The notes beneath the pieces were generated by a model. It saw nothing but the letters and a program-made list of their open reading frames with translations, did no database searches and was not told where the DNA came from. Made by a program: the position numbers and the translations under genes. Shown in pieces: positions 18,894 through 60,736 of a stretch of 64,000 nt of DNA; position 1 is the first letter of the stretch; each line of letters begins with the position of its first letter. The DNA lies in NCBI RefSeq assembly GCF_053078305.1, contig NZ_CP166879.1; one strand, given 5' to 3'.

Positions 18894-20057
18894 GTGGAAC
18901 AGATTAATTCAAATAAAAAACATTCTAACAGAAGAAAATACTTTTCTTTATTGGCGATAGTTTTATTTATTGCGTTTTCAGGTGCTTATGCCTATTGGTC
19001 AATGGAATTAGAAGACATGATTAGTACAGATGACGCCTATGTCACGGGGAATGCAGATCCAATTTCTGCACAAGTCTCAGGTAGTGTCACTGTAGTTAAT
19101 CATAAAGATACGAACTACGTTCGACAGGGTGACATTTTAGTTTCACTGGATAAAACTGATGCCACTATCGCACTCAATAAAGCTAAAAATAATCTGGCAA
19201 ATATTGTTCGGCAAACGAATAAACTGTACTTACAGGATAAACAATACAGTGCCGAAGTCGCTTCAGCACGTATTCAGTATCAACAATCTTTAGAAGATTA
19301 TAACCGTCGTGTGCCTTTAGCGAAGCAGGGGGTTATTTCAAAAGAAACGCTGGAGCATACCAAAGATACGTTAATAAGTAGCAAAGCGGCATTGAATGCC
19401 GCTATCCAGGCTTATAAAGCGAATAAAGCTTTAGTAATGAACACACCATTAAACCGTCAGCCACAAGTCGTTGAAGCTGCGGATGCAACCAAAGAAGCCT
19501 GGTTGGCGCTTAAACGTACGGATATTAAGAGTCCGGTTACCGGCTATATTGCCCAGAGAAGTGTTCAGGTCGGCGAAACAGTGAGCCCCGGACAATCGTT
19601 AATGGCTGTCGTACCGGCACGTCAAATGTGGGTTAATGCCAACTTTAAAGAAACACAACTCACGGATGTACGGATTGGTCAATCGGTCAATATTATCAGC
19701 GATCTTTATGGTGAAAATGTTGTGTTTCATGGCCGGGTGACAGGGATCAATATGGGAACCGGCAATGCGTTCTCCTTATTACCTGCACAAAATGCGACAG
19801 GGAACTGGATCAAAATCGTTCAGCGTGTACCGGTTGAAGTTTCTCTTGATCCAAAAGAACTCATGGAACACCCCTTGCGCATTGGTTTATCGATGACTGC
19901 AACTATTGATACGAAGGACGAAGACATTGCTGAGATGCCTGATCTGGCTTCAACCGTGACCTCCATGCCTGCTTATACCAGTAAGGCTTTAGTTATCGAT
20001 ACCAGTCCGATAGAAAAAGAAATTAGCAACATTATTTCGCATAATGGACAACTTTAA
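18894..20057 (+). CDS. emrK: Multidrug efflux membrane fusion protein
   Basis: 387-aa ORF (GTG start), HlyD-family; synteny. Confidence 0.85.
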   Translation: MEQINSNKKHSNRRKYFSLLAIVLFIAFSGAYAYWSMELEDMISTDDAYVTGNADPISAQVSGSVTVVNHKDTNYVRQGDILVSLDKTDATIALNKAKNNLANIVRQTNKLYLQDKQYSAEVASARIQYQQSLEDYNRRVPLAKQGVISKETLEHTKDTLISSKAALNAAIQAYKANKALVMNTPLNRQPQVVEAADATKEAWLALKRTDIKSPVTGYIAQRSVQVGETVSPGQSLMAVVPARQMWVNANFKETQLTDVRIGQSVNIISDLYGENVVFHGRVTGINMGTGNAFSLLPAQNATGNWIKIVQRVPVEVSLDPKELMEHPLRIGLSMTATIDTKDEDIAEMPDLASTVTSMPAYTSKALVIDTSPIEKEISNIISHNGQL

Positions 20058-21595
20058 TGGCAATCACTAAATCAACTCCAGCACCATTAACCGGTGGGAC
20101 GTTATGGTGCGTCACTATTGCATTGTCATTAGCGACGTTTATGCAAATGTTGGATTCCACTATTTCTAACGTCGCAATACCGACAATATCTGGCTTTCTG
20201 GGAGCATCAACAGACGAAGGCACCTGGGTTATCACCTCGTTTGGCGTAGCAAATGCCATTGCGATCCCTGTTACCGGCAGGCTGGCACAAAGAATAGGCG
20301 AATTAAGGTTATTTTTACTTTCAGTCACTTTTTTTTCGCTGTCTTCCTTAATGTGTAGTTTATCGACCAATCTTGATGTGTTGATATTTTTTAGAGTCGT
20401 TCAGGGGTTAATGGCAGGGCCGTTAATTCCACTGTCACAGAGTTTATTATTAAGGAATTATCCACCAGAAAAAAGAACATTTGCTCTGGCATTATGGTCA
20501 ATGACCGTGATTATAGCTCCGATATGTGGGCCGATATTAGGCGGATATATTTGCGATAACTTTAGCTGGGGTTGGATATTTTTAATCAATGTCCCTATGG
20601 GTATTATCGTCCTGACATTATGCTTAACCTTACTTAAAGGAAGAGAAACTGAGACTTCACCGGTCAAAATGAATCTACCAGGACTGACCCTGTTAGTGCT
20701 CGGTGTTGGTGGCTTGCAAATTATGCTTGATAAAGGGCGCGATCTGGATTGGTTCAACTCGAGTACAATAATAATATTAACAGTAGTATCAGTTATTTCT
20801 CTGATCTCTTTAGTCATTTGGGAGTCGACCTCAGAGAACCCGATTCTTGATCTCAGTTTGTTTAAGTCCCGTAATTTCACCATTGGTATAGTGAGTATCA
20901 CATGCGCGTATTTATTTTACTCTGGAGCGATCGTCCTTATGCCGCAGTTACTCCAGGAAACGATGGGGTATAATGCGATATGGGCCGGACTTGCTTATGC
21001 GCCCATCGGCATCATGCCACTATTAATTTCACCTTTGATAGGACGTTATGGCAACAAAATAGACATGCGGTTGTTAGTGACATTTAGTTTTTTGATGTAT
21101 GCGGTTTGCTATTACTGGCGTTCTGTGACATTTATGCCAACGATTGATTTTACAGGCATCATTTTGCCACAGTTTTTCCAGGGGTTCGCCGTTGCCTGTT
21201 TCTTTTTACCCTTAACAACGATTTCGTTTTCAGGGTTGCCAGATAATAAATTTGCCAATGCCTCGAGTATGAGTAATTTTTTTCGTACCTTGTCAGGATC
21301 AGTTGGTACGTCGTTGACAATGACGCTGTGGGGGCGACGCGAATCGTTACACCATAGTCAGTTGACAGCAACCATCGATCAATTTAACCCTGTGTTTAAT
21401 TCATCGTCACAAATTATGGATAAATACTATGGTTCGCTTTCAGGAGTTCTTAATGAAATTAATAATGAAATAACCCAGCAGTCACTTTCTATTTCTGCAA
21501 ATGAGATTTTCCGTATGGCGGCTATTGCTTTTATCTTACTTACGGTTTTGGTTTGGTTTGCGAAACCGCCGTTTACAGCGAAAGGCGTTGGGTGA
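20057..21595 (+). CDS. emrY: MFS multidrug efflux pump
   Basis: 512-aa polytopic ORF overlapping emrK stop. Confidence 0.9.
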   Translation: MAITKSTPAPLTGGTLWCVTIALSLATFMQMLDSTISNVAIPTISGFLGASTDEGTWVITSFGVANAIAIPVTGRLAQRIGELRLFLLSVTFFSLSSLMCSLSTNLDVLIFFRVVQGLMAGPLIPLSQSLLLRNYPPEKRTFALALWSMTVIIAPICGPILGGYICDNFSWGWIFLINVPMGIIVLTLCLTLLKGRETETSPVKMNLPGLTLLVLGVGGLQIMLDKGRDLDWFNSSTIIILTVVSVISLISLVIWESTSENPILDLSLFKSRNFTIGIVSITCAYLFYSGAIVLMPQLLQETMGYNAIWAGLAYAPIGIMPLLISPLIGRYGNKIDMRLLVTFSFLMYAVCYYWRSVTFMPTIDFTGIILPQFFQGFAVACFFLPLTTISFSGLPDNKFANASSMSNFFRTLSGSVGTSLTMTLWGRRESLHHSQLTATIDQFNPVFNSSSQIMDKYYGSLSGVLNEINNEITQQSLSISANEIFRMAAIAFILLTVLVWFAKPPFTAKGVG

Positions 21596-21702
21596 TGGTA
21601 AAAGCAGGGGGTTATAGCGGGTAAGACCGGGGATCTTAAGTCTGCGCCATCGGCAGCATCGCTCACCCAGGGAAAGGATGGCGATGCTGCGTTGAAATGT
21701 TA

Positions 21703-23031
21703 TTAACGGCCTTTTGCCAGATATTGCTCCATCTCTTCTTCCGGCACCATTCCACCTCCCGTCGCCCACACCAGATGAGTGGTATTACGCAGTTGTTCTG
21801 CGCTGAAACCGTGCATCTGTTGGTAACTTACTGATGCACACACGCGCTGAGGTCCGGCCATACCCGCCAGTGCCGAAGGTTCAAGACGAATACCTTCTTC
21901 CTGCGCCAGCCAGCCAAGCATGTCATACATGGTTTGATCGCTAAGGGTATAGAAGCCATCCAGCAGACGCTCCATTGCCCGCCCGACAAAGCCTGATGCG
22001 CGACCAACTGCAAGGCCATCCGCTGCGGTAAGGTTGTCGATACCAATATCCTGAACAGAAATCTGATCGTGTAATCCTGTATGGACGCCTAACAACATAC
22101 AAGGGGAGTGCGTTGGTTCGGCAAAAAAGCAGTGAACATGATCGCCAAACGCCAGTTTAAGCCCGAATGCGACGCCACCAGGACCACCGCCAACACCACA
22201 CGGCAGATAGACAAACAGAGGGTTATCAGCATCGACGATACGGCCTTGCTGGGCAAATTGCGCTTTAAGACGCTGGCCAGCGACGGAATACCCAAGGAAC
22301 AACGTGCGGGAATTTTCGTCATCAATAAAGAAACAGTTCGGGTCAGACTGCGCTGCTTTACGTCCTTCCTCGACGGCAACACCATAATCTTGCTCATATT
22401 CCACGACCGTAACGCCATGGCTGCGCAGTTTCGCTTTTTTCCATGCCCGGGCATCAGCAGACATATGCACTGTCACCTTAAAGCCAATGCGGGCGCTCAT
22501 AATGCCGATTGATAACCCCAGATTTCCGGTTGAGCCCACAGCAATGCTGTATTGGCTAAAGAACTGTTTAAACTCCGGAGAAAGCAGTTTGCTGTAGTCA
22601 TCATCAAGCGTCAGCAACCCCGCTTCCAGAGCCAGTTTTTCTGCGTGTGCCAGGACTTCATAAATCCCGCCGCGTGCTTTTATGGAGCCGGAAATGGGCA
22701 AATGGCTATCTTTTTTCAGTAACAGTTGCCCGCTGATCGGTTGTTGATATTCCTTTTCCAGCCGTTTTTGCATAGCCGGAATGGCAACCAGTTCTGATTC
22801 AATAATCCCCCCAGTGGCAGCAGTTTCAGGAAATGCTTTTGCCAGATAGGGTGCAAAACGGGATAAGCGCGCATGGGCGTCCTGAACATCCTGTTCGGTC
22901 AGGCCAACATAAGGTAAACCTTCAGCCAATGAGGTCGTGCCAGGATTAAACCAGGTGGTTTCTTTAAGAGCAACCAGATCCTTTACCAACGGATACTGGG
23001 CGATGAGCGAGTTCATTTTAGCGTTTTCCAT
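21703..23031 (-). CDS. dsdA: D-serine dehydratase
   Basis: 442-aa ORF with PLP motif SGSIKARGG. Confidence 0.9.
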
Positions 23032-23048
23032 AGTACGTCTCTTTGCGC

Positions 23049-23267
23049 TTAGATGATAAATGACAGCAGGAATGTGCCCGCCAGAGCGACGACTGAAGCG
23101 ATAAATGTCGCTGTCGTATAGTATTTAAATGTTTCATTGAGCGTAGCGCCGCAATATTGCTTCACCAGCCAGAAAAGCGAGTCCGTAACGATCGTGCAGC
23201 CAATCGCGCCTGAACCGATAGCAATCGCAATAATTTCCGGGCTGATGTCGGGATACAGCGGCAGCAC
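23049..23267 (-). pseudogene. dsdX: 3' remnant of D-serine permease gene (GntP family C-terminus)
   Basis: 72-aa ORF is only a hydrophobic C-terminal fragment; the rest of dsdX and dsdC are replaced by csc genes. Confidence 0.55.
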
Positions 23268-23497
23268 AATGATCCATATTTATATTTTCTTCTCCAGGTT
23301 GGCGATGCCAGTTGGCATGTTTTACTTACTTGCCTATATGGTTACTCGTTGGCGAGAACAGAGGCGGAATTGGGGACAATTGTCCGGGAATTATTGTTAT
23401 TTTTTATTGTATTGCCGTGTCAGGTGATAGGGCGTTGGATCTCGCCAGTGACGTCTGTTTCTGCTACAGTGCCCGTTTTACGGCAAACGGCTTGGGT

Positions 23498-24493
23498 ATG
23501 GCTTCATTAAAGGATGTCGCACGCCTGGCGGGAGTGTCGATGATGACAGTCTCCCGGGTGATGCATAATGCAGAATCTGTGCGTCCTGCAACGCGTGACC
23601 GCGTATTGCAGGCAATCCAGACCCTGAATTATGTTCCTGATCTTTCCGCCCGTAAGATGCGCGCTCAAGGACGTAAGCCGTCGACTCTCGCCGTGCTGGC
23701 GCAGGACACTGCTACCACTCCTTTCTCTGTTGATATTCTGCTTGCCATTGAGCAAACCGCCAGCGAGTTCGGCTGGAATAGTTTTTTAATCAATATTTTT
23801 TCTGAAGATGACGCTGCCCGCGCGGCACGTCAGCTGCTTGCCCACCGTCCGGATGGCATTATCTATACTACAATGGGGCTGCGACATATCACGCTACCTG
23901 AGTCTCTGTATGGTGAAAATATTGTATTGGCGAACTGTGTGGCGGATGACCCAGCGTTACCCAGTTATATCCCTGATGATTACACTGCACAATATGAATC
24001 AACACAGCATTTGCTCGCGGCGGGCTATCGTCAACCGTTATGCTTCTGGCTACCGGAAAGTGCGTTGGCAACAGGGTATCGTCGGCAGGGATTTGAGCAG
24101 GCCTGGCGTGATGCTGGACGAGATCTGGCTGAGGTGAAACAATTTCACATGGCAACAGGTGATGATCACTACACCGATCTCGCAAGTTTACTCAATGACC
24201 ACTTCAAATCGGGCAAACCAGATTTTGATGTTCTGATATGTGGTAACGATCGCGCAGCCTTTGTGGCTTATCAGGTTCTCCTGGCTAAGGGGGTACGTAT
24301 CCCGCAGGATGTCGCCGTAATGGGCTTTGATAATCTGGTTGGCGTCGGGCATCTGTTTTTACCGCCGCTGACCACAATTCAGCTTCCACATGACATTATC
24401 GGGCGGGAAGCTGCATTGCATATTATTGAAGGTCGTGAAGGGGGAAGTGTGACGCGGATCCCTTGCCCGCTGTTGATCCGTTGTTCCACCTGA
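23498..24493 (+). CDS. cscR: Sucrose operon repressor (LacI family)
   Basis: ORF 23312-24493; true start ATG 23498 (MASLKDVARLAGVS... HTH); 331 aa. Confidence 0.85.
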   Translation: MASLKDVARLAGVSMMTVSRVMHNAESVRPATRDRVLQAIQTLNYVPDLSARKMRAQGRKPSTLAVLAQDTATTPFSVDILLAIEQTASEFGWNSFLINIFSEDDAARAARQLLAHRPDGIIYTTMGLRHITLPESLYGENIVLANCVADDPALPSYIPDDYTAQYESTQHLLAAGYRQPLCFWLPESALATGYRRQGFEQAWRDAGRDLAEVKQFHMATGDDHYTDLASLLNDHFKSGKPDFDVLICGNDRAAFVAYQVLLAKGVRIPQDVAVMGFDNLVGVGHLFLPPLTTIQLPHDIIGREAALHIIEGREGGSVTRIPCPLLIRCST

Positions 24494-24500
24494 TATTATG

Positions 24501-25934
24501 TTAACCCAGTTGCCAGAGTGCTCCATGTTGCACCACAGCCACTCCGTGGGAGGCATAAAGCGACAGTTCCCGTTCTTCTGGCTGCGGATAGATTCGACTA
24601 CTCATCACCGCTTCCCCGTCGTTAATAAATACTTCCACGGATGATGTATCGATAAATATCCTTAGGGCGAGCGTGTCACGCTGCGGGAGGGGAATACTAC
24701 GGTAGCCGTCTAAATTCTCGTGTGGGTAATACCGCCACAAAACAAGTCGCTCAGATTGGTTATCAATATACAGCCGCATTCCAATGCCGAGCTGTAATCC
24801 GTAATGTTCGGCATCACTGTTCTTCAGCGCCCACTGCAACTGAATCTCAACTGCTTGCGCGTTTTCCTGCAAAACATATTTATTGCTGATTGTGCGGGGA
24901 GAGATAGATTGATGCTGCTGGCGTAACGACTCAGCTTCGTGTACCGGGCGTTGTAGGAGTTTGCCATTGCTCTCTGATAGCTCGCGCGCCAGCGTCATGC
25001 AGCCTGCCCAGCCTTCACGTTTTGAGGGCATTGGCGATTCCCACATATCCATCCAGCCGATAACAATACGCCGACCATCCTTCGCTACAAAGCTTTGTGG
25101 TGCATAAAAGTCATGCCCGTTATCAAGTTCAGTAAAATGCCCGGATTGTGCAAAAAGTCGTCCTGGCGACCACATTCCGGGTATTACGCCACTTTGAAAG
25201 CGATTTCGGTAACTGTATCCCTCGGCATTCATTCCCTGCGGGGAAAACATCAGATAATGCTGATCGCCAAGGCTGAAAAAGTCCGGACATTCCCACATAT
25301 AGCTTTCACCCGCATCAGCGTGGGCCAGTACGCGATCGAAAGTCCATTCACGTAATGAACTGCCGCGATAAAGCAGGATCTGCCCCGTGTTGCCTGGGTC
25401 TTTCGCCCCGACTACCATCCACCATGTGTCGGCTTCACGCCACACTTTAGGATCGCGGAAGTGCATGATTCCTTCTGGTGGAGTGAGGATCACACCCTGT
25501 TTCTCGAAATGAATACCATCCCGACTGGTAGCCAGACATTGTACTTCGCGAATTGCATCGTCATTACCTGCACCATCGAGCCAGACGTGTCCGGTGTAGA
25601 TAAGTGAGAGGACACCATTGTCATCGACAGCACTACCTGAAAAACACCCGTCTTTGTCATTATCGTCTCCTGGCGCTAGCGCAATAGGCTCATGCTGCCA
25701 GTGGATCATATCGTCGCTGGTGGCATGTCCCCAGTGCATTGGCCCCCAGTGTTCGCTCATTGGGTGATGTTGATAAAACGCGTGATAACGATCGTTAAAC
25801 CAGATCAGGCCGTTTGGATCGTTCATCCACCCGGCAGGAGGCGCGAGGTGAAAATGGGGATAGAAAGTGTTACCCCGGTGCTCATGAAGTTTTGCTAGTG
25901 CGTTTTGCGCCGCATGCAATCGAGATTGCGTCAT
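24501..25934 (-). CDS. cscA: Sucrose-6-phosphate hydrolase / invertase (GH32)
   Basis: GH32 motifs NDPNG and WECPD; start at MTQSR. Confidence 0.85.
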   Translation of the reverse strand: MTQSRLHAAQNALAKLHEHRGNTFYPHFHLAPPAGWMNDPNGLIWFNDRYHAFYQHHPMSEHWGPMHWGHATSDDMIHWQHEPIALAPGDDNDKDGCFSGSAVDDNGVLSLIYTGHVWLDGAGNDDAIREVQCLATSRDGIHFEKQGVILTPPEGIMHFRDPKVWREADTWWMVVGAKDPGNTGQILLYRGSSLREWTFDRVLAHADAGESYMWECPDFFSLGDQHYLMFSPQGMNAEGYSYRNRFQSGVIPGMWSPGRLFAQSGHFTELDNGHDFYAPQSFVAKDGRRIVIGWMDMWESPMPSKREGWAGCMTLARELSESNGKLLQRPVHEAESLRQQHQSISPRTISNKYVLQENAQAVEIQLQWALKNSDAEHYGLQLGIGMRLYIDNQSERLVLWRYYPHENLDGYRSIPLPQRDTLALRIFIDTSSVEVFINDGEAVMSSRIYPQPEERELSLYASHGVAVVQHGALWQLG

Positions 25935-26149
25935 TTTAATCATCCTGGTTAAGCAAATTTGGTGAATTGTTAACGTTAACTTTTATAAAAATAAAGTCCC
26001 TTACTTTCATAAATGCGATGAATATCACAAATGTTAACGTTAACTATGACATTTTGTGATCGAATATGCATGTTTTAGTAAATCCATGACGATTTTGCGA
26101 AAAAGAGGTTTATCACTATGCGTAAGTCAGATGAATTTAAGGGAAAAAA

Positions 26150-27064
26150 ATGTCAGCCAAAGTATGGGTTTTAGGGGATGCGGTAGTAGATCTCTTGCCA
26201 GAATCAGACGGGCGCCTACTGCCTTGTCCTGGCGGCGCGCCAGCTAACGTTGCGGTGGGAATCGCCAGATTAGGCGGAATAAGTGGGTTTATAGGTCGGG
26301 TCGGTGATGATCCTTTTGGTGCGTTAATGCAAAGAACGCTGCTAACTGAGGGAGTCGATATCACGTATCTGAAGCAAGATGAATGGCACCGGACATCCAC
26401 GGTGCTTGTCGATCTGAACGATCAAGGGGAACGTTCATTTACGTTTATGGTCCGCCCCAGTGCCGATCTTTTTTTAGAGACGACAGACTTGCCCTGCTGG
26501 CGACATGGCGAATGGTTACATCTCTGTTCAATTGCGTTGTCTGCCGAGCCTTCGCGTACCAGCGCATTTACTGCGATGACTGCGATCCGGCATGCCGGAG
26601 GTTTTGTCAGCTTCGATCCCAATATTCGTGAAGATCTATGGCAAGACGAGCATTTGCTCCGCTTGTGTTTGCGGCAGGCGCTACAACTGGCGGATGTCGT
26701 CAAGCTCTCGGAAGAAGAATGGCGACTTATCAGTGGAAAAACACAGAACGATCGGAATATATGCGCCCTGGCAAAAGAGTATGAGATCGCCATGCTGTTG
26801 GTGACTAAAGGTGCAGAAGGGGTGGTGGTCTGTTATCGAGGACAAGTTCACCATTTTGCTGGAATGTCTGTGAATTGTGTCGATAGCACGGGGGCGGGAG
26901 ATGCGTTCGTTGCCGGGTTACTCACAGGTCTGTCCTCTACGGGATTATCTACAGATGAGAGAGGAATGCGACGAATTATCGATCTCGCTCAACGTTGCGG
27001 AGCGCTTGCAGTAACGGCGAAAGGGGCAATGACAGCGCTGCCATGTCGACAAGAACTGGAATAG
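26150..27064 (+). CDS. cscK: Fructokinase (PfkB family)
   Basis: 304-aa ORF with ribokinase-like GAGD motif. Confidence 0.85.
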   Translation: MSAKVWVLGDAVVDLLPESDGRLLPCPGGAPANVAVGIARLGGISGFIGRVGDDPFGALMQRTLLTEGVDITYLKQDEWHRTSTVLVDLNDQGERSFTFMVRPSADLFLETTDLPCWRHGEWLHLCSIALSAEPSRTSAFTAMTAIRHAGGFVSFDPNIREDLWQDEHLLRLCLRQALQLADVVKLSEEEWRLISGKTQNDRNICALAKEYEIAMLLVTKGAEGVVVCYRGQVHHFAGMSVNCVDSTGAGDAFVAGLLTGLSSTGLSTDERGMRRIIDLAQRCGALAVTAKGAMTALPCRQELE

Positions 27065-27135
27065 TGAGAAGTAAACGGCGAAGTCGCTCTTATCTCTAAA
27101 TAGGACGTGAATTTTTTAACGACAGGCAGGTAATT

Positions 27136-28383
27136 ATGGCACTGAATATCCCATTCAGAAATGCGTACTATCGTTTTGCATCCAGTTACTCATTTCTCTT
27201 TTTTATTTCCTGGTCGCTGTGGTGGTCGTTATACGCTATTTGGCTGAAAGGACATCTAGGGTTGACAGGGACGGAATTAGGTACACTTTATTCGGTCAAC
27301 CAGTTTACCAGCATTCTATTTATGATGTTCTACGGCATCGTTCAGGATAAACTCGGTCTGAAGAAACCGCTCATCTGGTGTATGAGTTTTATCCTGATCT
27401 TGACCGGACCGTTTATGATTTACGTTTATGAACCGTTACTGCAAAGCAATTTTTCTGTAGGTTTAATTCTGGGGGCGCTCTTTTTTGGCCTGGGGTATCT
27501 GGCGGGATGCGGTTTGCTTGACAGCTTCACCGAAAAAATGGCGCGAAATTTTCATTTCGAATATGGAACAGCGCGCGCCTGGGGATCTTTTGGCTATGCT
27601 ATTGGCGCGTTCTTTGCCGGCATATTTTTTAGTATCAGTCCCCATATTAACTTCTGGTTGGTCTCGCTATTTGGCGCTGTATTTATGATGATCAACATGT
27701 GTTTTAAAGATAAGGATCACCAGTGCGTAGCGGCGGATGCGGGAGGGGTAAAAAAAGAGGATTTTATCGCAGTTTTCAAGGATCGAAACTTCTGGGTTTT
27801 CGTCATATTTATTGTTGGGACGTGGTCTTTCTATAACATTTTTGATCAACAACTTTTTCCTGTCTTTTATGCAGGTTTATTCGAATCACACGATGTAGGA
27901 ACGCGCCTGTATGGTTATCTCAACTCATTCCAGGTGGTACTCGAAGCGCTGTGCATGGCGATTATTCCGTTCTTTGTGAATCGGGTAGGGCCAAAAAATG
28001 CATTACTTATCGGTGTTGTGATTATGGCGTTGCGTATCCTTTCCTGCGCGCTGTTCGTTAACCCCTGGATTATTTCATTAGTGAAGCTGTTACATGCCAT
28101 TGAGGTTCCACTTTATGTCATATCCGTCTTCAAATACAGCGTGGCAAACTTTGATAAGCGCCTGTCGTCGACGATCTTTCTGATTGGTTTTCAAATTGCC
28201 AGTTCGCTTGGGATTGTGCTGCTTTCAACGCCGACTGGGATACTCTTTGACCACGCAGGCTACCAGACAGTTTTCTTCGCAATTTCGGGTATTGTCTGCC
28301 TGATGTTGCTATTTGGCATTTTCTTCCTGAGTAAAAAACGCGAGCAAATAGTTATGGAAACGCCTGTACCTTCAGCAATATAG
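27136..28383 (+). CDS. cscB: Sucrose:H+ symporter (MFS, LacY-like)
   Basis: 415-aa 12-TM ORF. Confidence 0.85.
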   Translation: MALNIPFRNAYYRFASSYSFLFFISWSLWWSLYAIWLKGHLGLTGTELGTLYSVNQFTSILFMMFYGIVQDKLGLKKPLIWCMSFILILTGPFMIYVYEPLLQSNFSVGLILGALFFGLGYLAGCGLLDSFTEKMARNFHFEYGTARAWGSFGYAIGAFFAGIFFSISPHINFWLVSLFGAVFMMINMCFKDKDHQCVAADAGGVKKEDFIAVFKDRNFWVFVIFIVGTWSFYNIFDQQLFPVFYAGLFESHDVGTRLYGYLNSFQVVLEALCMAIIPFFVNRVGPKNALLIGVVIMALRILSCALFVNPWIISLVKLLHAIEVPLYVISVFKYSVANFDKRLSSTIFLIGFQIASSLGIVLLSTPTGILFDHAGYQTVFFAISGIVCLMLLFGIFFLSKKREQIVMETPVPSAI

Positions 28384-28825
28384 ACGTAAACTTTTTCCGG
28401 TTGTTGTCGATATCTCCATATCCTTCAACCGGAAAATAATAATACTAAAATGCTTAGCCCTGCTAATAATCGCCTAATCCAAACACCTCATTCATGTTCT
28501 GGTACAGTCGCTCAAATGTACTCCGGATACACGGTTCGCTGATTTCCAGGACATTGTCGTCATTCAGCGACCTGTCGCGTGTATCACGGGCCTGCGAATT
28601 CATCAAGGAATGCATTGCGGAGTGAAGTATCGAGTCACGCCATATTTCGCTATCAGGATTCTGTGTGATGGTTACATCGCCCGGCCCAAGGCTGTTTAGT
28701 CATCAGCGCTTTCTGACAGTGCTGAGATTTCAACCTGTTGCAGTAAAAATGAGTAGATATAGGGCAAGTGTGCTGCCAAACCCATCGTTTACGGGATGAA
28801 GGTAGATTTGGTTTGAAGGGTATCT

Positions 28826-28842
28826 GGTGTCCCCTGCAGACA
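28826..28842 (-). repeat. att-core-like fragment matching the 3' end of tRNA-Arg (argW)
   Basis: ctggtgtcccctgcaga is the reverse complement of the recalled argW 3' end CTGCAGGGGACACCA; no tRNA body follows. Confidence 0.4.
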
Positions 28843-28912: not shown

Positions 28913-29113
28913 TTACCCATTGGCGCGGCTTAAGAGCTTATTTTTGAATTCACAATGGTCACGATATAACCATCTTGCTCGCCCGTGGATAACTTTGGCT
29001 TTAGGTAGGTCTCCGGACTTAATCCGGTCATAGATGAAGGTCTTACCGAAGCCAGTATCAGCCATGATGAATTTCAAATCAACCAGTGAATCAGGTTGTA
29101 GTTCGTGTTGCAT
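28913..29113 (-). CDS. Excisionase-like / AlpA-family DNA-binding protein
   Basis: 66-aa ORF with AlpA/Xis-like pattern (DTGFGKTFIYDRIKSGDLP); adjacent to att remnant. Confidence 0.5.
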   Translation of the reverse strand: MQHELQPDSLVDLKFIMADTGFGKTFIYDRIKSGDLPKAKVIHGRARWLYRDHCEFKNKLLSRANG

Positions 29114-33046: not shown

Positions 33047-33874
33047 TTAGACTTGAGGAAGTATTTTTTTTGCAAAATCAATAGTTTCTTTGTGGCTGGA
33101 TGCAGGTATATGATTTATTTTCTTAGCATCCATAGTTCTCTTTATGATGTCAATAACTTTGCTTTGGCCTGAGTTTGGTGATTCAGGGGTTTCAATTGTG
33201 AATAGAATGTCATCAAGTGAAAGCAGGTTTTCTTCTGCTGCTCGAGTTATTCTCATCACCCAAGTATCACTATGCTCCATCATTTTTCCGGGTTCAGTTT
33301 GAGTGAATGCCAGAGGTTTGATGGCACATTGGATCCTGTCGTGCTTCTTGGCGACCAATGGCATTGAGAACTTTGCGAAATACCCATCAATAGTTGCTTG
33401 TTTGAAGACGTTCTTCAATCCATCTATTCTATCGATACTGCGTTTTAGCTCTCTAGCTAGGACATCTTCACGGCGCTCTTTTGTGTAGTCAGCGTGGTTT
33501 ACATATTTATTGTAAATGCGAGCCAACTCTTCTTTCGGGTTTTCACTGAGGATAACTCTCGTAGAGCTGAACTGAAAAATTGATTCTTTTTTGTTTGTAA
33601 AATATCTGAAGAATTGTGCAAGTTGTTGATGTCCAACAATCTGGGTAGCATGCATTTTTGCGAACTGGAGTTCTCTTTGTATTGAGTCTTTTGCTACGGG
33701 AAAAATGCAATCATCATGGAAGAAATTCTTTACACGAGAGTCATTTCGCTTTGTGAGATGGAAGTCAAAGTAATTTTCTTTTGGCGCGCACAGAAGTACG
33801 CCTATGTTTGCGAACTCTTCAGTCTCCGCATAAGGCGCATAGCGAACGATGCTATATAGGCATGGAGTTGTCAT
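33047..33874 (-). CDS. Hypothetical protein, possibly DUF3037-like; second gene of rexAB-position operon
   Basis: ORF 33047-33889; likely ATG at 33874 overlapping upstream stop (ATGA); N-terminal YSIVRYAPYAETEEFANIGVLLC reminiscent of DUF3037 (from memory, needs HMM). Confidence 0.5.
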   Translation of the reverse strand: MTTPCLYSIVRYAPYAETEEFANIGVLLCAPKENYFDFHLTKRNDSRVKNFFHDDCIFPVAKDSIQRELQFAKMHATQIVGHQQLAQFFRYFTNKKESIFQFSSTRVILSENPKEELARIYNKYVNHADYTKERREDVLARELKRSIDRIDGLKNVFKQATIDGYFAKFSMPLVAKKHDRIQCAIKPLAFTQTEPGKMMEHSDTWVMRITRAAEENLLSLDDILFTIETPESPNSGQSKVIDIIKRTMDAKKINHIPASSHKETIDFAKKILPQV

Positions 33875-34620
33875 TCTATTGCGCTCCAAAATTCATCACA
33901 ATCACCTTTGCCTAGCGTAGTGCAGACAAAAGGTAAAAACTCATCATCTACTATCCACTCCTCTGGAATTTCGTCAAGGATAGCAGGAAGTTTGTGTAAA
34001 CTGTCAACGACCCTCTGGCGGTACTCTACGCGATCCACTAAATCATACTGCCATTTGCGGTTACCCGGGCCGTACACGTGTACAGAAAAATCTTCAGGCC
34101 CAGCATTCTGATCAAATGATAGATTATGGTCAATCAGATAATACTTATCGTTACTGATGTCATAAAGGATATTGACGTTTCCGCCTTTATCAGTAAGCGT
34201 TCTGTCTGCATTTAATATCCACTTATCAAAAGCATAGATTAATTTTTGCTGTTCGACTGGGATGATCATTTCGTTTCTTGACTGCGTAAACGTTAACGCG
34301 ATTGCACCGTCTATGAACAATGAAGCAAAAGCATACCCTGTACAAATTTGTTGCTGCAGATCAGGTGTGTACTCTACAAGTTCCTCTGGTACAAATACGA
34401 TTTTAAAGTCAGGTAAAGGAAGGCCGATATCATTAGCCAGGCACGCCGAAATGAACTCAGCTAAGAGATTTTTCGGGGGCATTGATGGTTTAGATTTCAA
34501 AACATACAACTGCCCATCATCACATTTGCAAAGAAATGGCTGAGTGGAACCTTCATTGATGCGACGTATTACTTCAACGACATTAGGTATTGCACTACTG
34601 CTGCTTGCTTCGCGCTCCAT
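33871..34620 (-). CDS. Hypothetical kinase-like protein (HipA / PI3-4 kinase-like motifs); first gene of rexAB-position operon
   Basis: ORF 33871-34623; motifs ILNADRTLTDKGGNVNIL and YYLIDHNLSFD resemble catalytic and metal-binding loops of HipA-type kinases; tentative. Confidence 0.5.
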   Translation of the reverse strand: MEREASSSSAIPNVVEVIRRINEGSTQPFLCKCDDGQLYVLKSKPSMPPKNLLAEFISACLANDIGLPLPDFKIVFVPEELVEYTPDLQQQICTGYAFASLFIDGAIALTFTQSRNEMIIPVEQQKLIYAFDKWILNADRTLTDKGGNVNILYDISNDKYYLIDHNLSFDQNAGPEDFSVHVYGPGNRKWQYDLVDRVEYRQRVVDSLHKLPAILDEIPEEWIVDDEFLPFVCTTLGKGDCDEFWSAIE

Positions 34621-54971: not shown

Positions 54972-56377
54972 AACTGGCACCGAACGTAAAACGATTACCG
55001 AAAGATAAATACACCGAAGCGGTTATTTTTGCGGGTATTGATGCTCACTCATTCGCAGAGCATTACATCATTGCACAGGCCAAAAAAGCAGGCGATCCAG
55101 TCCCTCCCGTTTATCTGGGGCGTTATCAGTTAAGCGAACTGGATAACCTCCAGATTGTTGATGATGGGCGATACAGGGCGACGGTGATACGCGCCGGAAA
55201 TATTGAAGAGCCGCAGCTGTTAACCATCGCCACGAAACTGGCGAGCGCCGGAGTCCAGGAGGCGCGGCTACTTTCTGAAAATTTCGAATTGCTGGAGGAA
55301 TGGAGCGACCAGCTTCCACGGCTTAGGGAGGCATGGGAACGCGGGGAAAGCCTGGTCATGAAAAAAATTCCCCAGCGAAAAACCACGCTACCGATGAGCG
55401 TTGGATCTACCGGATACGACACACAGCTTGATTACGTGGTAAAGGGGATTATTCCGGCATCGTCGCTTTGCAGCATATACGGGGCGAGCGGTTCCTATAA
55501 ATCATTCCTTGCCGGATCGTGGGCGTGTCACGTTTCCACGGGCCGCCAGTGGGGAGGCCGCAGGGTGGCGCATGGCGCTGTTCTCTATGTGGTTGGTGAA
55601 GGCGGTATCGGCGTTCCGCGTCGTGTAAAAGCCTGGGAGGTTGTGCACGGTGAGCAGGTGAAAAATCTGTATCTGGTAAACCGTCCCATCTTTCCGGCTG
55701 TCCCGCTTGATGTTGATGAACTGGTTATTGCTGCCAGTCAGGTGGAGAGGGAAACGGGTAAACCTGTTCGCATGATTATTCTGGACACGCTGGCGCGTTG
55801 CTTTGGCGGCAATGATGAAAATGACTCCCGCGACATGGGGGCATTTATCCGTGGTTGTGACGAGCTTAAACGGCGCACAGGGGCTACGGTGCTGGTGGTT
55901 CACCATTCCGGCAAGGATGAAACAAAGGGGGCGCGTGGTTCCAGTGCATTTCGTGCATCACTGGACGCTGAATACCGGATACGCAGGGAGGACGCAGGAA
56001 GCGAAGCGCTGGTTATCTCATGCACCAAAATGAAGGACGCGGAGGAACTCAAAGAGGCTGCCTATGATTTGCGGGTGGTGGAGCTTTTTACCGACGCTGA
56101 CGGGGAGTTAATTACGTCGCTGGTGGTGGTGGATAAGCCGCGCCCTCCCGTTGAACTGGAGCGCATCGAGGAGGCAGGCAACAAGACGGAAAACCATACC
56201 GCGCTATGGGGGTGCATCCGTTCACGCACACAGAACGGCGACAAGTGCACGATCCCGCTGTTACGTGACGATATGAAAAAGCTGGGGTATGACACAAAAC
56301 ACCTTAAACGATGGTTAGCCAAACTGGAAAAAGACGACGTGATCTACATTGACGGTGATGATGTAGGACCACTGTAA
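54968..56377 (+). CDS. Replication ATPase (RecA/DnaB-like P-loop, putative initiator/helicase)
   Basis: 469-aa ORF with Walker A GASGSYKS and Walker B IILDTLAR; followed directly by iterons. Confidence 0.65.
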   Translation: MKLAPNVKRLPKDKYTEAVIFAGIDAHSFAEHYIIAQAKKAGDPVPPVYLGRYQLSELDNLQIVDDGRYRATVIRAGNIEEPQLLTIATKLASAGVQEARLLSENFELLEEWSDQLPRLREAWERGESLVMKKIPQRKTTLPMSVGSTGYDTQLDYVVKGIIPASSLCSIYGASGSYKSFLAGSWACHVSTGRQWGGRRVAHGAVLYVVGEGGIGVPRRVKAWEVVHGEQVKNLYLVNRPIFPAVPLDVDELVIAASQVERETGKPVRMIILDTLARCFGGNDENDSRDMGAFIRGCDELKRRTGATVLVVHHSGKDETKGARGSSAFRASLDAEYRIRREDAGSEALVISCTKMKDAEELKEAAYDLRVVELFTDADGELITSLVVVDKPRPPVELERIEEAGNKTENHTALWGCIRSRTQNGDKCTIPLLRDDMKKLGYDTKHLKRWLAKLEKDDVIYIDGDDVGPL

Positions 56378-56580
56378 AAAGTGGGCATTAAAAGTGGGAA
56401 AGGTGGGCGATTTAACGTAATTTTAACAAAATCACCCACTTTCCCACGTGTATATATCCCAAAAAGTGGGCACTAAAAAAATACCTATGAAACAAGATGA
56501 TATAAATCCCAAACTTCCCACGTTGGACGAAGTGGGAAAACGTAAAAAGTGGGCGAAAAAAGTGGGTAGAGGTGGGCAAA
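56378..56580. repeat. Iteron-type replication origin of the satellite
   Basis: At least eight copies of AAGTGGG(C/A)A in both orientations within 200 bp. Confidence 0.6.
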
Positions 56581-56831
56581 TGACTCAAAAACACAGAGAC
56601 AGAACAGAGCCAAAATATAAAGCGTTAGACATGACAGAGCACGCTTTAAAGGTGGCAATCAGGGTAATAGACCGCCACACGCGGGAAGGATACGCGAAGG
56701 AACATCCCGACCTGATAAGCGCATTCATGACCACAGCGGCGGCAAACTTTGCCACGCTGACAGAACGGGAGATAGCCGAAGCGGAACAGGTAACAACCAT
56801 CAACGTTAAAACCGGAGAGGTGGAATCATGA
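56580..56831 (+). CDS. Hypothetical protein
   Basis: ORF 56448-56831 overlaps the iterons; likely start ATG 56580. Confidence 0.35.
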   Translation: MTQKHRDRTEPKYKALDMTEHALKVAIRVIDRHTREGYAKEHPDLISAFMTTAAANFATLTEREIAEAEQVTTINVKTGEVES

Positions 56832-57238
56832 CAGCACAGATAGCCGCTTACGGGCGGCTGGTGGACGACCCGCAGGTAAAACAAACCAGCAAGGGCACAC
56901 CGATGACGCTGGCGCGTATGGCGGTATCTCTGCCATGCAGCCAGGCACAGGACGGGCAGGCTACGTTATGGCTATCAGTGATGGCATTTGGTAAGCAGGC
57001 CGACTTCCTGGCTAAACATCAAAAAGGCGATGTTGCCAGCGTATCCGGCACGATGCAGGTAAGCCAGTGGACCAGACAGAACGGGGAAACGCGGCAGGGT
57101 TATCAGGTTATTGCAGACAGTGTAATCAGTGCCCGTGCTGCCCGTCCTGGCGGGAGCAGACGTACAACCACAGGCACACAGGGTAATCAGCCACCAGCGG
57201 GAGGCGATGACCCTTACGGTGACGGTATTCCGTTCTGA
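56828..57238 (+). CDS. ssb: Single-stranded DNA-binding protein
   Basis: 136-aa OB-fold-like protein with Gly/Pro-rich tail ending DDPYGDGIPF. Confidence 0.7.
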   Translation: MTAQIAAYGRLVDDPQVKQTSKGTPMTLARMAVSLPCSQAQDGQATLWLSVMAFGKQADFLAKHQKGDVASVSGTMQVSQWTRQNGETRQGYQVIADSVISARAARPGGSRRTTTGTQGNQPPAGGDDPYGDGIPF

Positions 57239-57248
57239 GGGGGTGACG

Positions 57249-57521
57249 ATGGTACATGACCGCATAGCGGAGGAACTCGAGGCAAAAGGCTTTTACCGGA
57301 GGGCGGCGGCGCGATGGGGTGAAGTTATGCAGCTGGTGGAGACAGACAAGGAACGGCATCAGGTTACGATGCGACGGCTGGAATGTTCCAGGAAGGCACA
57401 GAGGCCACCGGAGCCGCCGGATAACTTCGGAGACCTGAAAAAAGCAGTAGATCGCACTTATGCCGAAATGGGTATGGATGGTGTAAGCGATGAAATATGG
57501 CGTAATTACCCAGACAGCTAA
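57249..57521 (+). CDS. Hypothetical protein, possibly PerC-like activator
   Basis: 90-aa ORF (ATG 57249); N-terminal AEELEAKGFYRRAAARW resembles PerC family from memory. Confidence 0.35.
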   Translation: MVHDRIAEELEAKGFYRRAAARWGEVMQLVETDKERHQVTMRRLECSRKAQRPPEPPDNFGDLKKAVDRTYAEMGMDGVSDEIWRNYPDS

Positions 57522-57527
57522 TCAACA

Positions 57528-57549
57528 GCCGGAGAAATCCGGCTTTTTT
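57528..57549 (+). terminator. Rho-independent terminator
   Basis: gccgg-agaaat-ccggc hairpin plus TTTTTT; identical hairpin at 59802. Confidence 0.6.
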
Positions 57550-57562
57550 GTACCCAAAAAAA

Positions 57563-57598
57563 GCCCGATAAGTACAGGAGGCATCTTATCGGGCTTTT
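57563..57598 (+). terminator. Second tandem terminator hairpin
   Basis: gcccgataag ... cttatcgggc stem followed by TTTT. Confidence 0.5.
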
Positions 57599-57760
57599 GC
57601 ATATGAGGTTTTTTTGGTGCACTGACACACATGATCGGGGTAATCATTTCATAATTTGCAACACAACTCAACATCATTGCACAAAATGCAATCCTGATTA
57701 TAATCAGAGCTGGATGAACATCCAGTTCTGATTTTTTAAGTCAAAGAGGAATTTCTTACT

Positions 57761-57967
57761 ATGGCTGAAGAGAAAAAAGGCGGTGTTTCGGTGTACATAA
57801 GCCCCGAAATCGTGGAGGTGCTCAAGCAGCGCCACAAAAAAAACTATGAGGCTGGCGTAGCGGCTGGACTGGATCCGCTGATGACGCCGGAGCCGTCGAT
57901 AGGTTCACTTGTGCGCTCTTATTTACTTGCGGCGCTTGGGATGCATAAAAATTATGGTGGTGAATAA
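57761..57967 (+). CDS. Hypothetical protein
   Basis: 68-aa ORF with RBS agagga, immediately upstream of capsid-like gene. Confidence 0.4.
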   Translation: MAEEKKGGVSVYISPEIVEVLKQRHKKNYEAGVAAGLDPLMTPEPSIGSLVRSYLLAALGMHKNYGGE

Positions 57968-59022
57968 TGACAGTAAAAGCAATGGCACTTACAACTAACC
58001 AGCTTTTCGCGTACCTGAATCGCGGGGATATTGCAGAATTTAAATTCAGTCCGCTGTTTACCACGCTGTTTTTCCCGAACGTGGCGACCTTCAACACCCA
58101 GAACATCATGCTGGACACCCTGGACATTGAAGAGGTTACGATGTCAGCGTTCTGTTCGCCTATGGTGGGTAGTCAGGTCCAGCGCGATAAAGGGTACGAA
58201 ACCAGCACGATTAAACCAGGCTACATGAAACCCAAACACGAAATCGATCCAACAAAAACCATCATGCGCATGGCTGGAGAAGATCCGGCACAGCTTAACG
58301 ACCCTACCTACCGCCGTATGCGCCTGATTACTGGCAACATGCGCCGCCAGATAAACGCCATTAAAGCGCGCGTGGAATGGCTGGCGGTGAATGCGATAAC
58401 GACCGGAAAAAACATCATTGAGGGCGAAGGCATAGAACGCTATGAAATCGACTGGAAAATACCGGAAAACTGCATCATAGAGCAGGCCAAGGGTAAAAAA
58501 TGGTCCGAGCATGATAAAGATATTTACGATCCAATCTATGACATCGAACTATACGCAGATCAGGCAGGTTGCCCCGCCAACGTCATGATTATGGGCGCTG
58601 AGGTATGGCGCACGTTACGCAGCTTTAAAAAATTCCGCGAACTGTACGATCTTTCCCGTGGTTCAGAATCCGCCGCAGAACTGGCCTGTAAAAACCTGGG
58701 TGAAGTAGTGAGCTTTAAAGGCTATCTGGGCGATATTGCCCTTATCGTCTATTCCGGCAAATACACTGACAGCGACGGTACCGAAAAATATTTCCTTGAG
58801 CCTGATTTGCTGGTCCTGGGTAACACCAACAATAAAGGGCTGGTGGCCTATGGTGCGATTATGGATCAGGAAGCGGTAAGAACGGGCGCAACGCAAAACA
58901 TGTTCTACCCGAAAAACTGGATTGAAGACGGCGATCCGGCGATTGAGTACGTTCAGACGCACAGCGCACCGCAGCCGGTACCGGCAGATATTCGCAAATT
59001 TGTTACCGTCAAAATTGCTTAA
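57967..59022 (+). CDS. Major capsid protein homologue (lambda gpE-like)
   Basis: 351-aa protein sharing conserved blocks with lambda gpE (FxFxPLF, GYxKPKHE, DPxYRRxR, YDPxxDIExYA, VSxKGxxGDxAxxVYSG, YPKNW, GDPA, SAP); similarity judged from recalled gpE sequence. Confidence 0.65.
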   Translation: MTVKAMALTTNQLFAYLNRGDIAEFKFSPLFTTLFFPNVATFNTQNIMLDTLDIEEVTMSAFCSPMVGSQVQRDKGYETSTIKPGYMKPKHEIDPTKTIMRMAGEDPAQLNDPTYRRMRLITGNMRRQINAIKARVEWLAVNAITTGKNIIEGEGIERYEIDWKIPENCIIEQAKGKKWSEHDKDIYDPIYDIELYADQAGCPANVMIMGAEVWRTLRSFKKFRELYDLSRGSESAAELACKNLGEVVSFKGYLGDIALIVYSGKYTDSDGTEKYFLEPDLLVLGNTNNKGLVAYGAIMDQEAVRTGATQNMFYPKNWIEDGDPAIEYVQTHSAPQPVPADIRKFVTVKIA

Positions 59023-59033
59023 CGGGGGATTCT

Positions 59034-59369
59034 ATGGACACTCCATACATTGAGTTATTTGCAGGCAGTCAGCAGGTATCCACGACGCTGGTACATTTTG
59101 CCGCTGATGCTGGCGTTATTCAGGAATTTACCCCGCTGATGCTGGCGGACAATGGCGAGTTTAAGCCGTGGGATGGTCAGGAATCTGGCAAGGCTGTTTA
59201 TCTGACCTCGTACCCCGTGGACACGTCAAAGCAGAAATCAGCACAGTGTTACAAGACGGGGATATTTAATATCGCCGCCGTAAACTGGCCTGAGAGCGCC
59301 GACACTGACGCGAAAAAATGCGCCGCCTTTGCGGGTTCTGGCGTATCCGTTCAGCCGCTGGCGCGATAA
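59034..59369 (+). CDS. Head decoration protein homologue (lambda gpD-like)
   Basis: 111-aa protein aligning with gpD (TPLML, WDG, YKTGxF, WPE, AFAG), also with the bona fide D N-terminus at 63772. Confidence 0.6.
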   Translation: MDTPYIELFAGSQQVSTTLVHFAADAGVIQEFTPLMLADNGEFKPWDGQESGKAVYLTSYPVDTSKQKSAQCYKTGIFNIAAVNWPESADTDAKKCAAFAGSGVSVQPLAR

Positions 59370-59381
59370 GCAGGGGAAACG

Positions 59382-59795
59382 ATGGCAACGAATGAAAGCA
59401 TCATGGCGCTACCGCTGGCGAGTAAATTTAAAGCAGAAGCGCGGGCAATGGCTGACAGAGGTTTATCAACCTACGAGGCCGTATATCAACTCAACAAACT
59501 GGAAGAGCAGGACAAGCCGCGCGCTGATGCGATTATGGCGCTTCATGAACATAACGACTATCAGCCGCTGTTACGTGCAATGGCAAACGTGCCATGTATT
59601 AGCGTCGATAATGCTCGTGAAATCCTGAACATGACCATAGAGCAGGAGCGCCCAAAGGTTGCGCCGGAGCTTACCGCAGCCTTTGAAAACTTTATGGACA
59701 TGCACAGCCCGAAAGCCGTATCACCCGGCATGGCATACGACGGCAGAAACCAGGGCGATGAAGGCGACGTCGATCGCATACTGAAAACCATCTGA
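59382..59795 (+). CDS. Hypothetical protein
   Basis: 137-aa ORF between decoration-like gene and terminator. Confidence 0.4.
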   Translation: MATNESIMALPLASKFKAEARAMADRGLSTYEAVYQLNKLEEQDKPRADAIMALHEHNDYQPLLRAMANVPCISVDNAREILNMTIEQERPKVAPELTAAFENFMDMHSPKAVSPGMAYDGRNQGDEGDVDRILKTI

Positions 59796-59801
59796 CATAA
59801 G

Positions 59802-59824
59802 GCCGGAGAAATCCGGCTTTTTTT
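59802..59824 (+). terminator. Rho-independent terminator (duplicate of 57528 hairpin)
   Basis: gccgg-agaaat-ccggc plus TTTTTTT. Confidence 0.6.
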
Positions 59825-59856
59825 ACGGGTCCTTTCCGGCATATGGACCCGTTACG

Positions 59857-60724: not shown

Positions 60725-60736
60725 AGGTCGCCGCCC
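60725..60736 (-). other. Second cos-like site in inverted orientation
   Basis: aggtcgccgccc is the reverse complement of cosN; flanks on the minus strand resemble cosQ/cosB. Confidence 0.6.

Follow-up and report, generated by a model that had tools for sequence, protein, structure and literature searches.

The block formed by a dsdX remnant, cscR, cscA, cscK, and cscB in the analyzed 64,000-nucleotide stretch of contig NZ_CP166879.1 (the window) is almost certainly the usual chromosomal csc regulon of E. coli, a non-PTS sucrose pathway located immediately downstream of the argW att site. The order in the window is dsdA, a 72-codon 3' remnant of dsdX, cscR, cscA, cscK, cscB, a copy of the argW att site, and torI. 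The cscA gene is divergent from cscKB, and cscR is convergent with cscA, which matches the published order and orientation. The features of the region are as follows.

21703..23031, minus strand: dsdA, D-serine ammonia-lyase, 442 aa, intact (TIGR02035 equivalog, 814 bits, cut-off 368)
23049..23266/7, minus strand: dsdX 3' remnant, homologous to K-12 over 218 nt (codons 374-445 and the stop)
23267..23497, no strand: 231-bp spacer preceding cscR at the left edge of the csc block, without K-12 homology
23498..24493, plus strand: cscR, LacI-family repressor of the csc genes, 331 aa (Pfam LacI, E 1e-21; Peripla_BP_1, E 2e-92)
24501..25934, minus strand: cscA, cytoplasmic GH32 invertase, 477 aa (Glyco_hydro_32N, E 2e-106; 32C, E 2e-22; TIGR01322, 477 bits)
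25935..26149, no strand: divergent cscA/cscKB control region, two 12-bp palindromes with a CRP-like site between them
26150..27064, plus strand: cscK, fructokinase, 304 aa (NF006957 equivalog, 503.8 bits, cut-off 450; Pfam PfkB)
27136..28383, plus strand: cscB, sucrose:H+ symporter of the LacY family, 415 aa (LacY_symp, PF01306, 639 bits, E 3e-192; TIGR00882, 590 bits)
28463..28663, minus strand: N-terminal fragment of a DUF4942 gene, a relic (Pfam DUF4942, E 4e-10, profile positions 5-62 of 190)
28825..28839, minus strand: 15-bp copy of the argW tRNA 3' end (pawZ in K-12), attR core, where K-12 homology resumes exactly
28913..29113, minus strand: torI, recombination directionality factor at the attR end of the argW prophage, aligning to K-12 torI

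Borders and relatives of the replaced block

The initial annotation had placed the csc genes at the dsdC-dsdX position, between dsdA and a prophage, and had proposed alignments to K-12 dsdCXA and to E. coli W. The K-12 alignment confirmed this placement, with breakpoints at 23266/23267 (dsdX codon 374) and 28824/28825 (the 15-bp argW 3' core). The replaced block, 23267-28824, comprises 5,558 bp in place of 2,368 bp of K-12 DNA. On either side of it dsdA, the last 72 dsdX codons, and the flanks (emrY; pawZ and torI) are collinear with K-12 at ~98.5% identity, whereas dsdC, the dsdC-dsdX intergenic control region, and the 5' 1,120 nt of dsdX (codons 1-373 complete), all kept in K-12, are lost. 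A single ancestral event would have swapped this K-12 segment for csc. The interval originally delimited, 23049-28383, begins with the dsdX remnant, ends at the stop codon of cscB, and does not coincide with the replaced block proper.

All four csc genes are full-length, without frameshift or stop, when compared with E. coli W. The PGAP annotations of the corresponding regions in E. coli W, NADC1036, A16, and ATCC 8739 list these genes as well, and chance similarity is therefore excluded. The spacer at 23267-23497, the presumed site of the cscR promoter, has the same sequence in A16 and nearly the same in W and NADC1036. The GC content was ~49-52% in cscR, cscA, and cscK and ~43-45% in cscB; the GC profile of the locus displayed no compositional anomaly and so gave no sign of foreign origin.

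E. coli W (ATCC 9637) carries the csc regulon at argW-dsdA (NC_017635.1, 2,658,309-2,663,643) with the same order and orientations: argW-int-prophage-torI-cscB-cscK-cscA-cscR-dsdX'-dsdA. Its dsdX remnant (219 nt), its two operators, its DUF4942 relic, and its argW core match as well, and a prophage ending in torI lies beside cscB there too. The window and W were 98.7% identical over 7.6 kb, with 3-5 amino acid differences per Csc protein. The neighboring prophages differ, being P22-like in W as opposed to a lambda-like early region in the window. W has been shown to grow fast on sucrose when its concentration is high.

In the EC3132 csc locus, likened here by description, and in the cscBKAR/truncated dsd locus of O157:H7 EDL933, these four genes likewise stand in place of dsdC and leave dsdX truncated (PMC7486766, PMC3032704). 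With the identical architecture of W, this bears out the view that the window holds the known chromosomal arrangement; the replacement and its effects have been reported (PMC3032704, PMC7486766, PMC11251922). One O157:H7 genome has the same junction at 99%. The EC3132 regulon was reportedly described by Bockmann (1992) and Jahreis (2002), and the csc-for-dsdCX arrangement with its consequence is said to have been published by Jahreis (2002), Moritz and Welch (2006), Archer (2011), and O'Boyle (2020).

Two other systems are related by content. The scr regulon (scrKYABR) serves the same purpose and likewise combines a repressor of the LacI type with a GH32 hydrolase and a fructokinase, but it employs a PTS transporter and a porin and hydrolyzes sucrose-6-phosphate, whereas csc of the window has a LacY-type permease. 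Nothing scr-like was found at the csc locus of the window. Citrobacter freundii has four homologous csc genes with conserved operators (PMC11251922); its cscA and cscR are each inverted, and the window follows E. coli in this respect.

Among 5,426 complete E. coli genomes, the dsdX'/csc junction was found in 2,683, or about half, O157:H7 included, and the replaced dsdC-dsdX segment in 2,698. The two are nearly complementary states. The value for annotation is that the strain falls in the csc+/dsd- half of E. coli. Such strains use sucrose via csc, usually slowly, do not catabolize D-serine, and are inhibited by it, an inhibition that published work links to the restricted niches of attaching-effacing pathogens. 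A csc locus at the dsdCX position is long described, already known, and of low interest, and no outstanding research question hinges on it. The additions made here are small: the base-exact borders of the replaced block, the counts of the near-complementary junction and dsdC-dsdX segment, and the caution, taken up below, against reading sucrose use from csc alone.

Regulation and sucrose phenotype

The roles of CscB, CscA, CscK, CscR, and CRP-cAMP are established knowledge of the csc system. CscB would import sucrose together with a proton, CscA would hydrolyze cytoplasmic sucrose to glucose and fructose, and CscK would phosphorylate the fructose. Annotation pipelines label cscA "sucrose-6-phosphate hydrolase," a name taken from its family.

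The control region contains two perfect copies of the 12-bp palindrome GTTAACGTTAAC, at 25969-25980 and 26033-26044, as opposed to 0.18 matches expected in the window with at most one mismatch allowed. Both copies correspond to the published putative CscR operators, and by binding them CscR would keep cscA and cscKB off. Between them, at 26014-26029, lies the CRP-like site TGCGATGAATATCACA, with one mismatch, through which CRP-cAMP would add catabolite control. Window-wide, 28 matches to the CRP consensus were found versus 29.8 expected; because there is no enrichment, the assignment of this site rests on position and literature rather than on statistics. The csc operators and the CRP site are described in PMC11251922, which cites Jahreis 2002. 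A consensus scan insensitive to activator-dependent promoters detected no sigma-70-like promoter in the control region, and between 21.5 and 29.2 kb the same scan gave one promoter-like site versus 10 expected.

The cscR and cscA stop codons are 7 nt apart. CscR differs from that of W at three residues (A234D, P238S, and R317S) and is identical to that of A16; the exact protein occurs on at least 1000 contigs and is the commonest allele. CscA has no internal stops and differs from W at five residues, with T384I, in the C-terminal domain, absent from W, NADC1036, and A16. CscK differs from W at four residues and from A16 at none. CscB, which matches LacY structures at E 3e-63, differs from W at four residues (V88I, R189C, S246A, and C327Y). 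V88I and C327Y are absent from W, NADC1036, and A16, and the exact protein was found on only two contigs and is thus a rare allele.

The initial annotation had predicted a sucrose-positive strain. Its genetic basis stood, with the csc genes intact, but the prediction was too confident given the rare CscB allele and a 2024 survey in which csc-only isolates were slow or did not grow (PMC11251922). The presence of csc alone does not guarantee a sucrose-positive phenotype. A csc regulon would be expected to give sucrose-inducible, CscR-repressed growth on sucrose; published csc-only strains extend from slow growers to non-growers. It is possible, though rather doubtful, that the locus is instead intact but cryptic or very slow, leaving the strain sucrose-negative or late-positive, either through tight CscR repression at low sucrose or through poor transport by the V88I/C327Y protein.

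The survey speaks for such a cryptic state: of the 29 isolates with csc and without scr, not one grew fast on sucrose; growth was slow or very slow in 23, and five were listed as non-growers, mostly without a recognizable csc defect, whereas scr gives fast growth (PMC11251922). E. coli W is efficient on sucrose only above about 1% (PMC3938415), and W was called the only "safe" sucrose-using strain (PMC3032704) even though csc of ATCC 8739 is apparently intact. The scarcity of the CscB allele and the position of C327Y, which aligns near a functional residue of LacY (see below), point the same way. Against it, every open reading frame is conserved, as are the two operators and the intergenic region; no CscR allele is commoner than this one; and nothing indicates that C327Y is harmful.

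We doubt that V88I and C327Y make CscB a functional variant, one that may enhance, impair, or re-specify transport; if they do, the strain would not show the sucrose phenotype usual among csc strains. C327 corresponds in the alignment to LacY L329 and follows E323, the counterpart of LacY E325, by four residues. This glutamate is the essential proton-coupling residue of helix X, and C327Y is one helical turn away. A literature search on CscB helix X residues returned nothing on C327. Transport-enhancing CscB mutants were reportedly selected in EC3132 and offer a comparison for the V88I/C327Y allele.

The dsd genes and D-serine

DsdA differs from that of W at one residue and from that of A16 at none. 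The claim that only a 72-codon 3' remnant of dsdX survives held on two counts, since tblastn and the NCBIfam profile both returned DsdX residues 374-445 (98.6% identity to K-12 DsdX, E 6.8e-40; profile positions 374-445 of 445). A full-length 445-aa DsdX is not present at the locus. The GTG start given to the remnant by the ORF finder, at 23267-23265, arises at the junction, and PGAP labels the homologous remnants in W, NADC1036, A16, and ATCC 8739 "incomplete; missing N-terminus." DsdC, the LysR-type activator, is absent from the window, as had been claimed: a tblastn search of the whole 64 kb with the K-12 protein gave nothing better than E = 0.98.

Neither dsdC, which encodes its activator, nor the dsdX promoter is left to dsdA. 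In the csc/truncated-dsdX arrangement dsdA, deprived of DsdC, is silent, and D-serine still enters by other transporters and is bacteriostatic (PMC7486766). Loss of DsdC and DsdX would likewise leave the intact dsdA of the window transcriptionally silent because its activator is gone. The cell could then neither detoxify nor grow on D-serine, though other carriers would still import it. The phenotype expected from the literature is therefore no D-serine catabolism and D-serine toxicity. The initial annotation had foreseen altered D-serine uptake and regulation, which agrees with the loss of dsdC and dsdX, although its wording was weaker than the published silence of dsdA and toxicity (PMC7486766). 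A promoter/terminator scan of 21.5-29.2 kb revealed no convincing minus-strand terminator between cscA and dsdA.

This phenotype would be masked if a second, intact dsdCXA elsewhere in the genome kept D-serine catabolism, as in K1 strains, making the local loss inconsequential; we regard this as very improbable. Matches to dsdC-dsdX occur at 2,972 places in 2,772 genomes, so that some genomes have two, and "a few strains" have both loci complete (PMC11251922). Yet the csc junction and the dsdC-dsdX segment (2,683 and 2,698 of the 5,426 genomes) are almost complementary, the double dsdCXA is described for K1 strains while csc is uncommon in phylogroup B2 (PMC11251922), and Moritz & Welch are quoted in PMC11251922 for mutually exclusive D-serine and sucrose use. 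On the population counts, a second dsdC/dsdX copy is unlikely, and loss of D-serine catabolism is the preferred reading.

The right flank and the adjacent prophage

The csc block adjoins a prophage, as originally described. The 15 bp at 28825-28839, the right border of the block, are the attR core of whatever element occupies argW. They are followed by torI (28913-29113, minus strand), the first prophage gene in the window, which is annotated at the homologous position in NADC1036, W, and K-12. Beyond torI lie lambdoid early genes encoding exo/YqaJ, RecT, Gam, Kil, a cI-like repressor, O, and P.

That csc is cargo of this lambdoid prophage, and not an older chromosomal block, is exceedingly improbable: the block abuts the prophage, and four deposited coliphage records carry csc sequence at the record end, but csc lies outside the prophage because the attR core is between torI and the csc block, the same block and junctions occur beside a P22-like prophage (W), another integrative element (A16), and a CP4-type island (ATCC 8739), and the left junction is common to 2,683 genomes. 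We rejected a prophage-cargo origin on the position of attR and the different neighboring elements in other strains. Homology to A16 and ATCC 8739 stops at 28839, and each has a different element at argW.

The right-hand 441 bp of the csc block contain the DUF4942 relic, which is annotated in A16 and conserved in W, NADC1036, A16, and ATCC 8739. Members of the DUF4942 family characteristically sit at the distal end of integrative islands of the CP4 type.

Gene content and boundaries of the csc block

Genes were assigned from the ORF list and its translations together with NCBIfam and Pfam profiles. Together they place the sucrose-utilization genes cscR, cscA, cscK, and cscB between dsdA and the prophage, as the initial annotation had proposed.

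18894-20057, plus strand: emrK
20057-21595, plus strand: emrY
21703-23031, minus strand: dsdA (442 aa; D-serine ammonia-lyase equivalog, 814 bits)
23049-23267, minus strand: ORF of the dsdX 3' remnant (72 codons; DsdX profile positions 374-445 of 445 only)
23498-24493, plus strand: cscR (331 aa; LacI and Peripla_BP_1 domains)
24501-25934, minus strand: cscA (477 aa; GH32 N- and C-terminal domains)
26150-27064, plus strand: cscK (304 aa; fructokinase equivalog, 504 bits, cutoff 450)
27136-28383, plus strand: cscB (415 aa; LacY_symp, 639 bits)
28463-28663, minus strand: relic N-terminal fragment of a DUF4942 gene (Pfam E 4e-10)
28913-29113, minus strand: torI

For emrK through cscB, PGAP gives exactly this gene set in the corresponding regions of four complete genomes, with DsdX as a pseudogene labeled "incomplete; missing N-terminus."

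The breakpoints of the replaced block were defined by alignment to K-12 MG1655 and confirmed by blastn. On the left, K-12 homology spans dsdA and the 3' end of dsdX and stops at 23266. The K-12 position aligned there (locus coordinate 14968) is base 2 of dsdX codon 374, and the junction itself generates the GTG "start" of the 72-codon ORF. On the right, homology restarts at 28825 with 15 bp copied from the 3' end of argW (pawZ in K-12 and the attR core of the prophage) and extends past this argW core into torI. As a result, 5,558 bp (23267-28824) stand in place of 2,368 bp of K-12 (2,476,599-2,478,966), and the segment lost takes in the whole of dsdC, the control region between dsdC and dsdX, and dsdX up to nt 1,120. 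When K-12 DsdX was compared with the window by tblastn, residues 374-445 alone matched (98.6% identity, E 7e-40), and K-12 DsdC gave only chance-level matches across the whole window (best E = 0.98). The earlier statements that only a 72-codon remnant of dsdX survives and that dsdC is absent are thus upheld.

The block consists, in order, of a 231-bp spacer, cscR, cscA, a 215-bp divergent control region, cscK, cscB, and a further 441 bp. cscA and cscR are convergent, with 7 nt separating their stop codons. The 12-bp palindrome GTTAACGTTAAC occurs twice without mismatch in the control region, at 25969-25980 and 26033-26044 (0.18 matches with at most one mismatch expected in the window), and the interval between the copies holds a CRP-like site, TGCGATGAATATCACA, at 26014-26029. 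These three elements match the pair of putative CscR operators and the CRP site that PMC11251922 credits to Jahreis et al. 2002.

Distribution of the replacement and variation among strains

Of 5,426 complete E. coli genomes, 2,646 covered 80% or more of the csc interval. The junction between the dsdX remnant and csc, represented by a 200-bp probe, reached the same coverage in 2,683 of the 5,426, O157:H7 among them; the other genomes matched this probe by its dsdX half only. For the replaced K-12 dsdC-dsdX segment, 2,698 genomes reached 80% coverage or more, and 2,772 had any match. The junction and dsdC-dsdX states sum to 5,381 of 5,426 genomes and are therefore almost complementary. These totals, which give no exact overlap, fit one ancestral replacement followed by spread through recombination, with co-occurrence being rare.

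E. coli W (NC_017635.1) has the same architecture as the window, in the order argW-intS-prophage-torI-cscB-cscK-cscA-cscR-dsdX remnant-dsdA-emrY, including a prophage whose torI end adjoins cscB. The locus had been said to match the known chromosomal csc arrangement, and the comparison with W, which the initial annotation had suggested as a check, bears that out. The two sequences are 98.7% identical across 7.6 kb, with no frameshift and no internal stop. From W to the window, CscR differs at three residues (A234D, P238S, and R317S) and CscB at four (V88I, R189C, S246A, and C327Y); five differences are found in CscA and four in CscK. A16 is almost identical over dsdA-cscK, with one nucleotide differing within 21600-27140, and contig JPQG01000003.1 of GCA_000736735.1 is 100% identical to the window over 21 kb.

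CscA T384I, in the C-terminal domain, and CscB V88I and C327Y occur in none of W, NADC1036, and A16. The exact CscB protein was present in only 2 contigs of a 15-billion-protein collection, as opposed to 17 for CscA, 209 for CscK, and at least 1,000 for CscR. Alignment to LacY structures (E 3e-63) equates CscB H320 and E323 with LacY H322 and E325, and C327 with LacY L329, one helical turn past the essential proton-coupling Glu (E323). We consider it quite improbable that this allele is functionally distinct. The rare allele makes the sucrose phenotype less certain.

Predicted sucrose and D-serine phenotypes

The functions of the csc genes are established (Bockmann 1992, Jahreis 2002; summaries in PMC3032704 and PMC11251922). 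On that basis, CscB would take up sucrose by proton symport, CscA would act as an invertase in the cytoplasm, and CscK would phosphorylate the released fructose. CscR would repress cscA and cscKB via both putative operators, and CRP-cAMP would exert additional catabolite control.

The genes needed for the sucrose-positive phenotype predicted by the initial annotation are present, but the prediction was too firm. Among 29 isolates with csc and without scr, the PTS-dependent sucrose regulon, none grew fast on sucrose and 23 grew slowly or very slowly; five isolates were named as nongrowing, with a visible lesion in one only (PMC11251922). For efficient use of sucrose, E. coli W needs concentrations above about 1% (PMC3938415). 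In ATCC 8739 (Crooks; NZ_CP043852.1, 2,154,963-2,160,297), cscRAKB appears intact and lies next to the same dsdX remnant, and yet the E. coli W genome paper names W as the only "safe" strain using sucrose (PMC3032704). ATCC 8739 illustrates that the phenotype cannot be read from the presence of csc alone, and these three lines of evidence led us to soften "sucrose-positive." Genetically, the strain is equipped for csc-type sucrose use, which is usually slow or requires high concentrations.

DsdC is the activator required for dsdXA expression. EHEC strains with the same arrangement have a silent dsdA, and D-serine inhibits their growth (O'Boyle et al. 2020, PMC7486766). The expectation of altered D-serine uptake and regulation falls short of the published effect (PMC7486766), and the predicted outcome is better described as lost D-serine catabolism and D-serine sensitivity. 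Tolerance has been reached in two ways, through lost uptake and through deletions giving read-through into dsdA from the cscA promoter, and loss of CscR gives further derepression (PMC7486766). In the window, cscA, the dsdX remnant, and dsdA all lie on the minus strand, with only the antisense cscR and 231 bp between, and a simple scan of that strand from cscA to dsdA found no convincing intrinsic terminator. With this geometry, deletions that bring dsdA under read-through from the cscA promoter are possible. Earlier publications already describe the csc arrangement and where it lies, as well as the mutual exclusion of csc and dsdCX and the physiological consequence.

The argW site and its occupants

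Homology to A16 and ATCC 8739 stops where the argW core ends, at 28839, and the right junction is as fixed as the left one. Past the core lie a different integrative element in A16, a CP4-type island in ATCC 8739, prophages in W (P22-like) and NADC1036, and a lambdoid prophage in the window. Since these occupants differ beyond a common junction, the csc block is placed immediately downstream of ancestral argW, a site then occupied by different mobile elements in different strains. The same diversity rules out csc as cargo of the adjoining prophage. The DUF4942 relic, from a family that typically occurs at the distal end of CP4-type islands, is located in the 441 bp that separate cscB from the argW core. 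Together with the loss of homology exactly at the core in strains that carry different elements there, it is a footprint of serial argW occupation.

No tRNA gene was found anywhere in positions 1-64000, which places both the intact argW and the prophage's int end past 64000. Prophage and embedded element together span more than 35 kb.

Four coliphage records (ON470594.1, ON470608.1, ON470622.1, and ON470589.1) include the csc block (98.2-98.6% identical), in each case at or near one record end. An argW prophage may have been aberrantly excised or packaged along with csc, or the placement may come from the choice of record boundaries.

The lambda-B-type portal gene of the lambdoid prophage (region 49021-63762) is interrupted by an 11.6-kb element.

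49021-49902: N-terminal part of the portal gene
about 49980-61608: 11.6-kb element
from about 61629: C-terminal part of the portal gene

The element is bordered by a 21-bp direct repeat, GTGTATTGCAATGTGTATTGC, at 49980 and 61588. It carries integrase, Bro/anti-repressor-like, primase/helicase, SSB, major capsid, head-decoration, and small terminase genes, as well as a stretch with 81% identity to the phage 21 terminase/cos region. The portal-integrase junction was found in 63 of 5,426 complete genomes. Helper-embedded PICIs target prophage late genes, portal-gene sites included (PMC10111431), and the element fits this already described class. A DUF3037 and HipA_2-domain gene pair (about 33047-34620, minus strand), located in the prophage early region between a kil-like gene and a cI-like repressor gene, could be an accessory toxin or defense module.
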